The notes under the pieces are model-generated. The model was not told the origin of the DNA. It saw only the letters and a list, made by a program, of their open reading frames with translations, and did no database searches. Source: an uncultured Candidatus Saccharibacteria bacterium (GTDB lineage: Bacteria; Patescibacteriota; Minisyncoccia; Ryanbacterales; 2-02-FULL-48-12). Taken from it: a stretch of DNA of 61,401 nt. Both the position numbers and the translations under genes were made by a program. Positions 27,945-32,054 of this stretch are shown here, piece after piece; position 1 is the first letter of the stretch; each line of letters begins with the position of its first letter. Location of the stretch: contig CAYZNS010000005.1 of the NCBI GenBank assembly GCA_964479945.1, positions 1-61,401 of the forward strand. Reading direction: 5' to 3'.

Positions 27945-30900
27945 ATGAATACAAATCTAGTATTTCCCGTAATGGCGTTTCAGAAGCGAATCGTGGAGAC
28001 AGTAACGAGGAATCAGGTTACGTTCATTGTGGGCGCGACCGCTTGCGGAAAGACGACGCAGGTGCCGCAGTTTCTGTTGGATGCCGTGTTTGCAGAGCAG
28101 GGGTTGATTGGGTGTACGGAACCGCATGTAGCAGCGGTGATTGCGGCAAGCAATTATATGGCGTGGCAGCGCGGCCTTCCCGTAGGGGAAGAAATAGGGT
28201 ATCACGTGCGCTTTAACAGGCGCCTTTCCCCGCGCACCAAGGTAAAGTTCGCAACAAGCGGCATTGTGCTGCGCGAGGCAATACTTGATCCGCAACTCTC
28301 GTCCTATCAATGCATGATAGTGGACGAAGCGCATGAGCGTGATGTCTTTAATGATTTTTTACTGGGATACCTTCGAAGGCTTTGCCGCGACGGCTCTTCC
28401 GCGCGCGCCGCGTTTCGGTTGGTGGTGATGAGCGCCACGCTTGACTGGCGTGCATTTGCCCGGTTTTTCCCAGACGCGGCTATTGTGCGCATTCCGCATA
28501 GAACGTATCCTATTCATGTCTCGTATCATCCGGTAGAAGACGGGGGGTATAGAAAAGCAATCTGCTCGCATGTGCGCCGCATTCACGCCTCTGGTGCCGA
28601 TGGCGACATTCTGGTATTTGTGCCGGGAGAGCGCGAAATACGGCAAGTGATAAAAGATATTGAGCGATTGCCGGTGCAAGGTATCCGCTGTTACCCGCTC
28701 TATGGCGGTATGGACCCGGAGCATCAGCAGGAGGTTTTTTTGAAAACGAAGGAGCGTAAGGTAATCGTGGCGACAAATGTCGCGGAAAGTTCCCTTATAT
28801 TCCGGGGAACGGTGATTGATTCCGGGCTTGCAAAAAAGGTAGCGTTTGATCCGGTGCTTGGTATTGAGACGTTGAACCTTGTTAACATCAGCCGGAGTTC
28901 TGCGGAACAGCGCGCGGGACGTGTAGGGCGCGATGCGCCCGGCGCCTGTCTGCGGTTGTATAGCGAGGAGGATTTTCTAACCCGCCCGGTGCACGACGAG
29001 CCGGAAATACAGCGCGCAGATCTTACATCGCTGGTGCTTGCCATGAAGTACCTGGGCTTGGGGCGTGATTTTGATTTTTTAACGCCTCCGCCTGCGGAAA
29101 ACTGGCAGGTGGCGGAAGACTATCTGCGCGCCATGGCGGCGGTTACGGAAGAAGGAACGCTTACTGCGCATGGCGCGCGCATGACGCGTATGGCGCTTGA
29201 TCCGATCCTTGCCCATTTTGTGCTTTGCGGCGTGAAATGGGGTTGTGCGGCCGAAGCCGTAACGATTGCAGCCATGCTTTCGGTGCCGCGGCTTTTTTAC
29301 CGCGAATTTTACGAAGGAGAAGAGTTTGCGCGGATACAAGCGTTGTTCCGGTGTGCACAGAGCGATCTTTATACCTTGCGGGCCGTATGGAAAGGGTACG
29401 AAGATGTGCAGTTCAATCCGCAGTGGTGCAGCCGGCATTTTCTCAACGCGAAGCTCATGCAGGCCGCACGGGATCTCCGGACGCAAACGTTGGAGTTTCT
29501 TCAACTGGAAGGATTGCTTAGTGAAGCGCCAGGAACCGATGACATGTTGGATCGCGCGATACTGGAAGGGTTTCGCGCGCATCTCTTGCGGTATCATCGT
29601 TCCGGGTGGTATCGCGTAATGCGCAATGGGTTTATGGTGAAACTTTCGCCCGGATCCGCATTGTTTGCGTTAACGCCGTCGTTTGTGGTGTCTGCCCAGC
29701 TATTTCGCACAAAAACGGTTCTTGCGCACTGGAATCATGCGGTGTCGTATGAACTGGTGCGGGAACTCTCACCGGAAGCGCTGCAATGGGAAAAGCCAGC
29801 TGCCGCTCTCCGACCGCTTCATGTGGAAGGAATACTGACTGTTGAAACTGGAAATAGTAGGCGGCTCGTGAAAGTGGATGTGGATCTTACGCGCTCATCC
29901 GGGCGGGAGTTGGAGATAGTGGATCGCGGAACGGCCATCCTGGAGGAGGACCGATGTCCGCTGCGCCTGCTTGCCCTTAATCCACAGACGGTTGCGGCAC
30001 TCCAAGAACGCGGCATCACCTCGCTCGCAGAACTACCCAATGCGCGCAAGGCGCTAGAGGACGGCGGGTATTCAGAGGAGGTGATTGCGGATATTGAGCA
30101 CGCCATACGGCGATTGGGGTATCTTCCTCATTCGCTGCCACGGGGCGCCGTGGAGGATGAGACGCGTGATCGTGAAGAGCAGAAGTTGGAGACGGGTACG
30201 GTGCCGGAGGCGGCAGATCATGATCGGTATCGGATGGAATTTCTCAACAAGCCGGTGGAGGCGCTGGGATGCTCCAAAAGCGCAAACATGGTACTGTGCG
30301 GAATAGACATAGCATCCGTAAAGGACCTTGTTTCTCTTACGGAAGAGGGATTCATCCAAAAAATCAGGATGTTTTTCCGCGCATCGCAGGGCTGGCCTAC
30401 AAATAACCGCAAAGGTGATGAAGATAAAGCGCTGCGGATTGTAAGGGAAGTACAAGCACAGATGCTGCGCGCCGGGCTTTCGTTTACACGTGATCCTTCC
30501 GAGCAGCGGCTTACGGTACGAAGATCGGTTATAGACATACCGTCGGCGATGGTGGTGAGCGAGGAAGAAGCGGCGCGGATAATGGGTGAAGAGTTCCCGC
30601 TTTTTAAGATGTACCGGGAAGCTTTAGTGGGTTCATTGCAAAAGGTGCAGGCGCGTAATGAGATAACAGTTGCTAACCAGCGGCTGCCTTTTAAATACGT
30701 GCGTGCATTTTTAAACCAGCGCGCCGCGCAAGAGAACCCCGCGCTTGAAAGTGACGATTTCTACCAGGAGGGCGTTATCGGGATGATGCGAAGCATTGAA
30801 TCGTTTGATTACACCCGCGGCGGCAGGTTTTCTACCTATGCCACGTGGTGGATCAAGCAATTTATGCAACGCATGCTGGATGATTGCGGACTGGTGCGCA

Positions 30901-32054
30901 TCCCCGTTCACCTGATAGAGAATATACGGAAAACGAAAAATGCGTACGCTAAGGTTGAGGAAGAAGTCAAGCGAGCGCCGACGCGCGAAGAAGTTGCGCG
31001 CGCGATGGGCATATCCCTTCAGAGATTGGAGAATATCCTCTCTTGGATGGATTTGTACAAGCATCCGATTTCTCTGGAGGATGCGCTTTCTCCGGACGCA
31101 AAGAAGAATGGATCGCGGGGAGGCAATGATGATGACCTTGTTTTGGATATTGCGGACGAACGGCCGACGGTAGATGAACTGTTGGCAGATGATCAACTGC
31201 GGCGGTACGTAACGCGCCTGCTTTCCGAACGCGTGATGAAAGACGTGAATGCAACGTGCCTCAAATTGTATTTCGGGCTGGAAGGCGAGCGCGCGCATAC
31301 GTTGGAGGAGATTGGCGAGTACTTAGGCGTAACGCGCGAGCGCGTTCGTCAGCGCATCAAGTATACACTGGATGAATTGCGAACGCTTGAGGTGTGGAAA
31401 GAAGCGCAAGCGCATCTACCCTATCTGCCAACACCGGCAACGGGTGTTCACAAGTGGGATGTTGAGGTGGCGGAGAACGCAAGCGCGCTTGCCCAAAAGC
31501 GCAAATCGCATAATCAGATTGTCAACGAGACGCTTGAGTGCGTTGCGGCAGAGTGCGGCGCTGATGTTGCCGTGCTGCTGGGCGGCGGCAACCTCACGCC
31601 GGATCTGGTGCCAGTGCGCAATAAGGCAGTGTATCGCTTTATGCAGCTTGCACGCGTCCCGGCTGATGAAGCAGCGCGACTCTTTTCATTGGAGGACGGG
31701 CTTGCCGTTTCAGAGATATGCGCAACCGTTGCTGAAGAAGAGCGCATAGCAACTGGCGGGGCCGCGGCATCACTGACGGCTGATGAACGCTGGCACGCGC
31801 TGCAGATTGTGACGGGCGCGGCTGCAGAGTTTGGGCTTACGCCTAAGGAAATGATGGAGAGCGGAAGAAGCGGAGAGACGGCGTATGCGCGGCAGAAAGC
31901 CATGTATCGCCTGCGGGAGGAACTCAAGCTTTCCTTTCCGCAGATCGGTGCCATTTTCGGCAAGCATCACACGACTATTATTCACGGCTATTATAGCGTC
32001 AAGCGCGCAATGGCTCGTGAGAAAAAGAACAAGGAAGGAGGTGTCATGTCATGA
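27945..32054 (+). CDS. DEAH (HrpA-like) RNA helicase - 2x RNAP alpha-CTD-like - sigma70 (regions 2-4) - 2x DnaA C-terminal HTH fusion
   Basis: GATACGKTT, DEAH, MSAT, QRAGRVGR; KPVEALGCSKSANMVL...SVKDLVSLTEE; QEGVIGMMRSIESFDYTRGGRFSTYATWWIKQ; TLEEIGEYLGVTRERVRQ; RQKAMYRLREELKLSFPQIGAIFGKHHTTIIH. One continuous 1369-aa ORF. Confidence 0.85.
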   Translation: MNTNLVFPVMAFQKRIVETVTRNQVTFIVGATACGKTTQVPQFLLDAVFAEQGLIGCTEPHVAAVIAASNYMAWQRGLPVGEEIGYHVRFNRRLSPRTKVKFATSGIVLREAILDPQLSSYQCMIVDEAHERDVFNDFLLGYLRRLCRDGSSARAAFRLVVMSATLDWRAFARFFPDAAIVRIPHRTYPIHVSYHPVEDGGYRKAICSHVRRIHASGADGDILVFVPGEREIRQVIKDIERLPVQGIRCYPLYGGMDPEHQQEVFLKTKERKVIVATNVAESSLIFRGTVIDSGLAKKVAFDPVLGIETLNLVNISRSSAEQRAGRVGRDAPGACLRLYSEEDFLTRPVHDEPEIQRADLTSLVLAMKYLGLGRDFDFLTPPPAENWQVAEDYLRAMAAVTEEGTLTAHGARMTRMALDPILAHFVLCGVKWGCAAEAVTIAAMLSVPRLFYREFYEGEEFARIQALFRCAQSDLYTLRAVWKGYEDVQFNPQWCSRHFLNAKLMQAARDLRTQTLEFLQLEGLLSEAPGTDDMLDRAILEGFRAHLLRYHRSGWYRVMRNGFMVKLSPGSALFALTPSFVVSAQLFRTKTVLAHWNHAVSYELVRELSPEALQWEKPAAALRPLHVEGILTVETGNSRRLVKVDVDLTRSSGRELEIVDRGTAILEEDRCPLRLLALNPQTVAALQERGITSLAELPNARKALEDGGYSEEVIADIEHAIRRLGYLPHSLPRGAVEDETRDREEQKLETGTVPEAADHDRYRMEFLNKPVEALGCSKSANMVLCGIDIASVKDLVSLTEEGFIQKIRMFFRASQGWPTNNRKGDEDKALRIVREVQAQMLRAGLSFTRDPSEQRLTVRRSVIDIPSAMVVSEEEAARIMGEEFPLFKMYREALVGSLQKVQARNEITVANQRLPFKYVRAFLNQRAAQENPALESDDFYQEGVIGMMRSIESFDYTRGGRFSTYATWWIKQFMQRMLDDCGLVRIPVHLIENIRKTKNAYAKVEEEVKRAPTREEVARAMGISLQRLENILSWMDLYKHPISLEDALSPDAKKNGSRGGNDDDLVLDIADERPTVDELLADDQLRRYVTRLLSERVMKDVNATCLKLYFGLEGERAHTLEEIGEYLGVTRERVRQRIKYTLDELRTLEVWKEAQAHLPYLPTPATGVHKWDVEVAENASALAQKRKSHNQIVNETLECVAAECGADVAVLLGGGNLTPDLVPVRNKAVYRFMQLARVPADEAARLFSLEDGLAVSEICATVAEEERIATGGAAASLTADERWHALQIVTGAAAEFGLTPKEMMESGRSGETAYARQKAMYRLREELKLSFPQIGAIFGKHHTTIIHGYYSVKRAMAREKKNKEGGVMS

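Follow-up and report, generated by a model that had tools for sequence, protein, structure and literature searches.

A sigma70-family protein of a Parcubacteria bacterium joins a DEAH helicase, alpha-CTD-like modules and DnaA domain IV modules and is a candidate principal-like initiation factor

We analyzed a stretch of 61,401 nucleotides from contig CAYZNS010000005.1 (the window), which is cellular DNA carrying SufB/SufS, CysS, CTP synthase, P-type ATPase and thyA genes. One gene in it, at positions 27945 to 32054, encodes an intact helicase core, a small beta module, two modules resembling the C-terminal domain of the RNA polymerase alpha subunit (alpha-CTD), a primary-type sigma70 segment and two modules of the DnaA domain IV type (DnaA-IV), all in a single protein. 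With moderate confidence we take this fusion protein to be a true initiation factor of the sigma70 family in a Parcubacteria bacterium (candidate phyla radiation [CPR]/Patescibacteria), most likely the principal or a principal-like one of its lineage, with accreted partner modules. This reading is suggested by its primary-type promoter recognition motifs, by RpoD/SigA as its nearest relatives outside the family, by a conserved gene triad, by the position of one relative next to ribosomal protein genes and by the promoter-like sites that precede the gene at 8 of 10 loci. The gene and its parts are listed below, with the evidence for each.

27945..32054, forward strand: fusion gene, helicase/beta/alpha-CTD (two)/sigma70 regions 2 to 4/DnaA-IV (two); open reading frame (ORF) and translation, 21 full-length homologues aligned
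27963..29774, forward strand: DEAH/RHA helicase core, aa 7 to 610, with RecA1, RecA2, winged helix, ratchet and oligonucleotide/oligosaccharide-binding (OB) region; NCBIfam, PDB
29808..29939, forward strand: family-specific beta-hairpin module, aa ~622 to 665; conserved alignment block, AlphaFold2 (AF2) model, hhalign to the small downstream protein
29940..30140, forward strand: alpha-CTD-like module 1, aa ~666 to 732; family profile against PDB, Foldseek of the AF2 model
30228..30494, forward strand: alpha-CTD-like module 2, aa ~762 to 850, with an insertion between its two helix-hairpin-helix halves; family profile against PDB
30582..30620, forward strand: conserved family motif LGxQFPLFKxYR, here GEEFPLFKMYREA, directly before region 2.1; family alignment
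30663..31388, forward strand: sigma70 regions 2.1 to 4.2, aa ~907 to 1148; Pfam regions 2, 3 and 4, PDB matches to RpoD/SigA at E = 1e-33
31506..31730, forward strand: DnaA-IV-like module 1, aa ~1188 to 1262, degenerate; hhalign
31788..32012, forward strand: DnaA-IV module 2, aa ~1282 to 1356, signature GKHHTTIIHG; Pfam, PDB, AF2

The ORF begins with ATG and runs for 1369 aa without interruption. A GGAGG sequence lies at 27934-27938, 7 nt 5' of the ATG, and the start at 27945 is favored because a conserved N-terminal LP(V/I) motif in the family alignment precedes the alternative start at Met10. Pfam placed seven domains above their curated cut-offs: DEAD (aa 12-169), Helicase_C (215-329), HA2_C (419-478), Sigma70_r2 (918-978), Sigma70_r3 (992-1045), Sigma70_r4 (1104-1146) and Bac_DnaA_C (1288-1349). 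NCBIfam matched HrpA over aa 7-610 (E = 2e-117) and RpoD-type sigma factors over aa ~890-1148. An earlier note on this DNA had proposed, within one uninterrupted ORF, an HrpA-like helicase (about aa 1-630), alpha-CTD-like segments from about aa 671 and 764, sigma70 regions 2 to 4 with the motifs DFYQEGVIG, FSTYATWWIKQ and TRERVRQ, and two DnaA C-terminal helix-turn-helix (HTH) domains at about aa 1190-1350. The domain scan and architecture search that it called for recovered all of these modules, with boundaries correct to about 10 to 20 residues throughout and all three sigma motifs in place, and found collinear relatives in independent assemblies. The first DnaA domain proved to be degenerate and visible to hhalign alone. 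The beta-hairpin module, a free paralogue of the beta and two alpha-CTD-like modules, and an RNase III partner go beyond what the note had listed.

The sigma segment carries the proposed role. Its three Pfam regions scored well above cut-off (PF04542, 47.1 bits against 24; PF04539, 37.0 against 25.3; PF04545, 48.5 against 24.1), and regions 2 and 4 were matched in all 22 family members. The promoter recognition motifs FSTYATWWIKQ (regions 2.3/2.4), VRIPVHLIEN (region 3.0) and TLEEIGEYLGVTRERVRQ (region 4.2, including VTRERVRQ) align to RpoD/SigA in the PDB. FSTYAxWWI, PVH and TRERxRQ are invariant in the family, and the longer forms FSTYATWWI, RIPVH and TRERxRQ are kept almost perfectly. The best matches of the segment outside the family were RpoD/SigA primary sigma factors, at 34-40% identity over regions 2.1-4.2. 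A protein search with the C-terminal half of the fusion was swamped by RpoDs, with P0002 as its sole family return, which likewise shows that primary sigma factors are the nearest outsiders. The fusion resembles RpoD/SigA (group 1) and RpoS (group 2) end to end through regions 2.1-4.2, and retains FSTYATWWI.Q for the -10 element, RIPVH for the extended -10 element and TRERxRQ for the -35 element. Unlike RpoD/SigA, it has no region 1.1, region 1.2 or non-conserved region, and it adds a 900-residue N-terminal extension made up of the helicase, the beta module and the two alpha-CTD-like modules and a 220-residue C-terminal extension that holds the two DnaA-IV modules. No alignment was obtained between the motif GEEFPLFKMYREA and region 1.2 of solved sigma factors.

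The helicase core is complete. Motifs I (GATACGKT), II (DEAH), III (SAT), V (TNVAESS) and VI (QRAGRVGR) are present and invariant across the family alignment. A PDB search returned matches, full-length over aa 7-610, to Prp22/DHX8, Prp16 and Prp43 (E = 1e-112 to 1e-96) and to Escherichia coli HrpA (E = 4e-87); HA2_C was matched in the fusion itself and OB_NTP_bind in 14 of the 22 family members by Pfam. The motifs, the winged-helix/ratchet/OB core and the full-length alignment to Prp22, Prp43 and HrpA place this part among the DEAH/RHA helicases, and what it shares with HrpA/HrpB, Prp43/DHX15, Prp22/DHX8 and Prp16 is the complete core with motifs I to VI. It differs from HrpA in having no HrpA C-terminal region (PF11898); the HrpA equivalog TIGR01967 reached 393.2 bits against a cut-off of 722.75, with profile positions 66-684 of 1284 matched. 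It differs from DEAH/RHA helicases generally in that the helicase of this family either forms one polypeptide with a sigma factor or has its gene beside that of one. A parallel is offered by RapA and HelD, NTP-driven motors of RNA polymerase complexes that aid recycling. These belong to the Swi2/Snf2 and the UvrD-like superfamilies, respectively, are unrelated to DEAH proteins and bind the core enzyme as free proteins, not within a sigma factor. The parallel with the fusion is one of functional analogy only, and no homology is claimed.

Between helicase and sigma lie the beta-hairpin module, whose strands were modeled by AF2 with modest predicted local distance difference test (pLDDT) scores, and the two alpha-CTD-like modules. 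The Pfam scan of the fusion itself detected neither alpha-CTD-like segment. PF03118 was matched in 14 of 22 homologues, the family profile of module 1 had the RpoA CTD as its best PDB match (E = 0.01), and that of module 2 (aa 762-850) matched RpoA CTDs over the whole domain (E = 2e-7). In the AF2 model of aa 615-860 the helical domains reached pLDDT values of 80-90, and almost all of the best ~30 Foldseek matches of this model were RNA polymerase alpha subunits or alpha-CTDs (probability up to 1.0, TMt up to 0.84). By profiles and Foldseek, both modules have the double helix-hairpin-helix fold of the alpha-CTD family. Module 1 is missing from one subgroup of the family alignment (subgroup B). 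The likeness to the RpoA CTD is one of fold; the modules differ from it in not being tethered to an alpha N-terminal domain (alpha-NTD), with two in tandem in the sigma protein and two more in the free paralogue described below.

Of the C-terminal modules, DnaA-IV module 2 is clear. It scored 58.2 bits against a cut-off of 31.5 with Bac_DnaA_C (PF08299) and matched the DNA-binding domain (DBD) of Mycobacterium tuberculosis DnaA in the PDB (E = 1.6e-9). Its AF2 model (pLDDT 86.5) has the fold of the domain and was superposed by Foldseek on the DnaA-DBD/DNA complexes 3pvp and 1j1v with root-mean-square deviations of 1.7 and 1.0 A. The HTT and basic-loop Arg positions of DnaA domain IV are kept in it. 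Module 1 gave no DnaA match in Pfam or in PDB sequence or profile searches and is without the DHTT-type end of the recognition helix; hhalign related it to module 2 (97.6% probability, E = 3e-12) and to the clear DnaA_C copy of other family members (95.9%). Pfam and NCBIfam found no DnaA replication-initiator domains (AAA+ III, I) in the fusion, which differs from DnaA in having no AAA+ domains I-III and in carrying domain IV in duplicate, after sigma region 4.

The protein is a sigma70-family member that contains a true DEAH/RHA core along with an HTH of the DnaA type, and it belongs as such to none of RpoD, HrpA, DnaA, RpoA or MzaA. MzaA, like the fusion, is a long protein whose sigma70-family segment is C-terminal, and differs in that the generic sigma part alone aligns, that MzaB-E partners are absent and that the N-terminal domains are others. 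We considered membership in the MZA system and rejected it: NF041931 scored 159.1 bits against 800, PADLOC matched the sigma part alone, and the neighboring genes had no Mza matches.

A search of 5.8 billion proteins returned 21 further full-length homologues with the same domain order at 36-49% identity, originating from NCBI, ENA, JGI and Logan assemblies. With the C-terminal 770 aa as the query, HMMER scanned 1.84 billion representatives exhaustively and found ~20 that are fused, a metagenome profile scan found four family loci, all fused, and JGI metagenomes gave two more fused loci. A contig scan with the full-length alignment was swamped by Planctomycetota HrpA genes and yielded a single family locus, L006. 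Named relatives come from Parcubacteria: 'Parcubacteria group bacterium' (TSC62485.1), Yanofskybacteria (OGN32812.1, A0A1F8H5C0) and Sungbacteria (MBI2053198.1). Junction sequences and family-specific linkers are conserved at every domain boundary of the family alignment. The earlier note had named a unique architecture with degenerate sigma regions as grounds for doubt; at the level of sequence, the architecture has 21 relatives and the sigma motifs are kept. No viral relatives were found in a scan of IMG/VR viral contigs. A phage origin was also considered and rejected, on the grounds given below for a mobile element. PADLOC and PHROGs gave generic domain matches only for the block of genes around the fusion. 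Public records of the relatives bear automatic names alone ('DHX15/PRP43', 'RNA polymerase sigma factor'). The earlier note knew of no described protein with this architecture, and we likewise found no description of it, and nothing on alpha-CTD modules borne by sigma factors, in the literature searched. Sigma factors, the alpha-CTD and DEAH helicases are individually textbook subjects; their joined form has not previously been described.

Two family sequences are interrupted. In L006, a Sungbacteria-like genome labelled Saccharibacteria, positions 7978-7980 form an in-frame stop codon in the family gene (FSTYA*QWIRQ), and a relative (P0023) at 90% identity or above has a frameshift elsewhere in the gene. 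Either gene decay or assembly error would account for these.

The fusion gene is the first of an apparent four-gene operon consisting of the fusion, a 209-aa gene, an intact RNase III gene and a degraded RNase III paralogue, which is followed by a strong terminator-like hairpin. The genes and sites around it are listed below.

25612..26544, forward strand: ParB-like protein (ParB_N and HTH_ParB), first of a ParB/divergent gene/sigma triad
26604..27803, reverse strand: conserved divergent neighbor; its four Cys repeats resemble zinc ribbons, and it ends in a winged helix that is FtsK-gamma-like in homologues
27836..27863, forward strand: sigma70-type promoter-like site TTGACA-16-TACAAT upstream of the fusion, 11/12 match
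32051..32680, forward strand: small downstream gene, 209 aa; PF03118 matched by Pfam over aa 167-204, linker of the fusion matched by hhalign
32698..33408, forward strand: RNase III with intact signature and double-stranded-RNA-binding domain; always the last operon member at the 12 distinct family loci with an RNase III partner
33433..34194, forward strand: RNase III-like paralogue with degraded catalytic residues; terminator-like hairpin at 34208-34231
34487..35278, forward strand: extracytoplasmic function (ECF)-like sigma factor with a C-terminal alpha-CTD-like module; Pfam Sigma70_r2 at 4e-17, RNA_pol_A_CTD at 2e-5

The start of the small gene overlaps the stop of the fusion gene (ATGA), an arrangement that suggests translational coupling. 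Its product is a free paralogue of the beta module and both alpha-CTD-like modules of the fusion (hhalign probability 98.2%, E = 6e-14, 171 collinear columns); pairwise BLASTP of the two proteins was uninformative, and the paralogy rests on the profile comparison. The beta module also begins the helicase-less relatives described below, as it begins the small protein. The small protein is conserved in seven loci and missing in exactly four, and in those four the fusion ends in an extra alpha-CTD with the GRxRLLMT motif of the small protein. The tail of the ECF-like sigma factor in the window has the motif RLLMTPGM in common with the small protein and with the tails of subgroup-B fusions. In the RNase III-like paralogue, the sequences NMRLEFLGGRV and LKAIVAAMYLD stand where the preceding RNase III has NERLEFLGDAV and FEALVGAIYLD, and the protein is probably an inactive partner or a pseudo-enzyme.

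Family loci were read as windows of up to 25 kb around the matches. The order ParB/divergent gene/sigma/(small protein)/RNase III was found at every family locus with sufficient upstream sequence, and the ParB/divergent gene/sigma triad persists even where the sigma protein is a minimal alpha-CTD-sigma of 400 aa. The exhaustive search also returned helicase-less relatives of ~720-775 aa that begin precisely at the beta module, together with shorter alpha-CTD-sigma(-DnaA-IV) and sigma-alpha-CTD proteins; many relatives elsewhere have an alpha-CTD-sigma or sigma-alpha-CTD architecture. At one locus (L093) a separate 613-aa DEAH helicase, 32% identical to aa 1-620 of the fusion (E = 8e-93), shares 11 nt with the start of an unfused gene for a beta/alpha-CTD/sigma/DnaA-IV protein of 778 aa, and the operon at another (L091) has, after RNase III, a DEAH-like helicase of 635 aa. 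Helicase, sigma factor, small paralogue and RNase III are evolutionarily linked, since they are fused in some lineages and split within the same operon in others. By this comparison of loci, the fusion in the window is the most fused state of these partners.

A Yanofskybacteria contig (locus L086) has the fusion and RNase III genes immediately 5' of infA-rpsM-rpsK-rpsD-rpoA-rplQ. The RpoA encoded there (16928-17662) is 244 aa long and consists of the NTD only, with no PF03118. The 120 proteins nearest to it (72-96% identity) likewise have no PF03118, and their lengths run from 228 to 274 aa. Two Yanofskybacteria/Paceibacteria loci (L094, 10001-10741; L095, 10001-10738) encode an RpoA of ~245 aa, alpha-NTD only, followed directly by rplQ. 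Loss of the alpha-CTD in Parcubacteria is mentioned in PMC8321222; in Nelson and Stegen 2015, which that paper cites for its Parcubacteria statement, we found no text on RNA polymerase. The RpoA of the organism of the window is encoded outside the window, and for this genome the loss is therefore supported by lineage and not directly.

Upstream of the fusion gene, the intergenic region 27804-27944 holds two overlapping divergent near-consensus sigma70-type promoter-like sites, each an 11/12 match: the site listed above and that of the divergent neighbor (TTGACA-17-TATTAT). An additional TATAAT lies at 27900-27905. Across the family, 8 of 10 loci have a TTGACA/TTGTCA-17-TAnnnT site 5' of the family gene. 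In a Parcubacteria metagenome-assembled genome (L002), the intergenic region 5' of the fusion gene (~9790-9900) contains a ~45-bp direct repeat (…GAAAGGGAGGGTGGGAGGGAT…).

If the fusion is a principal or principal-like sigma factor, its sigma regions 2-4 would dock on core RNA polymerase and read promoters of the TTGACA/TAnnnT type, for example one before its own operon. The alpha-CTD-like modules on the sigma factor and on the small paralogue, instead of on alpha, would contact upstream DNA or other factors, and the DnaA-IV HTH modules just after region 4 may make sequence-specific contacts upstream of the -35 element. The N-terminal helicase, presumed to run 3' to 5', would be delivered to the polymerase by sigma and could there remodel RNA at or near the enzyme, whether nascent or abortive transcripts, R-loops or RNA left on recycled core. 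RNase III may cooperate with it on RNA that is structured or double-stranded. We propose more tentatively, and with somewhat less than even confidence, that the roles within the Parcubacteria holoenzyme have been redistributed, such that alpha sheds its CTD, sigma factors and the small paralogue deliver alpha-CTD-type modules, and the principal sigma factor tethers a DEAH helicase and DnaA-type HTH anchors. The earlier note had suggested a sigma factor coupled to RNA/RNP remodeling and to additional DNA-binding modules, and this part gains independent genomic support from the separate helicase and sigma genes that share one operon in sister lineages. Its further suggestion, that the protein might redirect RNA polymerase, is the weaker part; the primary-type motifs, RpoD/SigA as nearest outsiders, the conserved locus and RpoA without alpha-CTD favor a principal-like sigma factor belonging to the core of the lineage.

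Several observations weigh against a principal role and against parts of this mechanism. Regions 1.1 and 1.2 were not detected: neither PF03979 nor PF00140 was matched, and the family profile aligns from region 2.1 on. The RpoD equivalog cut-offs were missed, with scores less than half of those required (NF004208, 149.7 bits against 555; TIGR02393, 146.2 against 354). Four of the five best sigma70-type promoter matches of the 61-kb window lie in the 24-28 kb block (upstream of 24032, 25612, 26604 on the reverse strand, and 27945), and the housekeeping genes of the window have promoter matches of 9/12 at most; this clustering in its own block would also fit a dedicated regulon. L094 and L095, close relatives of the L086 genome, are without the block at the equivalent site. 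The window shows no enrichment of canonical DnaA boxes, with 5 found against 5.75 expected for a relaxed pattern; two perfect consensus sites TTATCCACA lie at 10602-10610 and 46395-46403, both on the reverse strand. With family loci read in windows of up to 25 kb, the same organisms may also have another primary sigma factor. The DNA-binding 265 determinant of the alpha-CTD consists of R265, N268, G296, K298 and S299 (E. coli numbering). In the alpha-CTD-like modules it is not retained: the position of N268 is a near-invariant Met, K298 and S299 are not kept, and the position of R265 is R or K in some members only. Binding of UP elements is doubtful because this determinant is lost, and contacts with proteins are equally likely.

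The first alternative that these points raise is that the fusion is an alternative sigma factor for a small dedicated regulon (its own ParB/zinc-ribbon/sigma/RNase III block, or genes marked by DnaA-box-like sites) and that another alpha-CTD-tagged sigma factor is the principal one. To this we give a minor but real share of the probability. Besides the promoter clustering, the missed RpoD cut-offs and the absence of regions 1.1 and 1.2, it is supported by the varying position of the block between related genomes and by the second sigma gene that often follows the operon, namely the ECF-like one in the window and a 430-aa alpha-CTD-sigma in L092. These neighboring sigma factors are, however, less primary-like than the fusion: that of L092 reads FLSYAYPWIKK and RFPQNV, and that of the window is ECF-like, whereas the fusion family keeps its promoter-reading motifs almost perfectly. 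The persistence of the orthologous ParB/divergent gene/sigma locus across architectures also speaks against a regulon-specific role.

It is unlikely that the fusion is primarily an RNA-processing machine, with helicase and RNase III as its business end and the sigma-like segment serving as a dock to RNA polymerase or DNA with no promoter specificity. The invariable operon linkage of RNase III and DEAH helicase, the intact helicase motifs and the spliceosomal or ribosome-biogenesis nature of the closest solved helicases (Prp22, Prp16, Prp43) would all fit such a machine. Mere docking, however, would not need the promoter-reading residues that are conserved in regions 2.4, 3.0 and 4.2, and sigma relatives lacking the helicase, and ones lacking RNase III, occupy the same locus.

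We regard it as improbable that the protein is the sigma factor of a mobile element or anti-phage system, such as an MzaA-like one, that redirects host polymerase to element genes. The top NCBIfam/PADLOC match of the sigma part is indeed MzaA, PHROG 351 matched at 1e-47, and ParB-like proteins, a ResIII/HNH helicase and Y1 transposases are encoded nearby; a serine recombinase and Rep occur in L004 and AbiEii in L093. GC content is 0.54-0.55 at 28-34 kb, where the operon lies, but drops to 0.46-0.51 in the 2-kb windows on either side and is ~0.40-0.51 over most of the 61 kb, and the absence of the block from the equivalent site in L094 and L095 points the same way. Against this stand the MzaA score of 159 bits, far below the cut-off of 800, with no Mza partners; the absence of phage structural genes and of a flanking integrase from the window; the lack of relatives among IMG/VR viral contigs; flanks made up of core genes (suf, lysS, greA, the dcw cluster, ribosomal proteins); and identities of 36-49% across class-level lineages, which fit vertical descent. 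Finally, that the ORF is a chimera of separate helicase, sigma and DnaA-like genes produced by misassembly or misannotation is hardly credible, for while unfused gene pairs occur in some lineages and two Sungbacteria-like assemblies have a stop or frameshift in the gene, the collinear fusion with conserved junctions recurs in ~20 independent assemblies (NCBI, ENA, JGI, Logan), GC content is uniform across the fusion junctions and a conserved family-specific linker bridges every one of them.

Were the holoenzyme rewired as tentatively proposed above, it would be the first sigma-helicase holoenzyme, coupling promoter recognition to ATP-driven RNA remodeling and RNase III processing and carrying an RNA motor into the initiation complex. 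A large uncultured lineage would then initiate transcription unlike all studied bacteria, with the upstream-contact domain on sigma and not on alpha. The family offers a test case for transcription regulation in genome-reduced CPR bacteria with few classical regulators, for the purpose of bacterial DEAH helicases and for the evolutionary modularity of the RNA polymerase holoenzyme. The fused and unfused gene pairs are ready-made constructs for biochemistry.

Other features of the window were also noted. In PADLOC, the ResIII/Helicase_C protein at 22029-23681 (forward strand), which contains two HNH_repeat units, is similar to the helicase portion of methyl-directed restriction enzymes of type IV. 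Genes for IS200/Y1-type transposases lie a few kb 3' of the block in two unrelated genomes, at 38598-39431 (forward strand) in the window and at 16734-17411 in L002. A dNTP-metabolism cluster at 36751-42336 comprises genes for thymidylate kinase (reverse strand), thymidylate synthase, and dUTPase-like and dCTP deaminase-like proteins. GC skew stays positive along most of the window and plateaus at 50-58 kb. Adjoining cysS, at 52985-54889 (reverse strand), is the gene for a family X DNA polymerase with pol beta thumb, helix-hairpin-helix and PHP domains.

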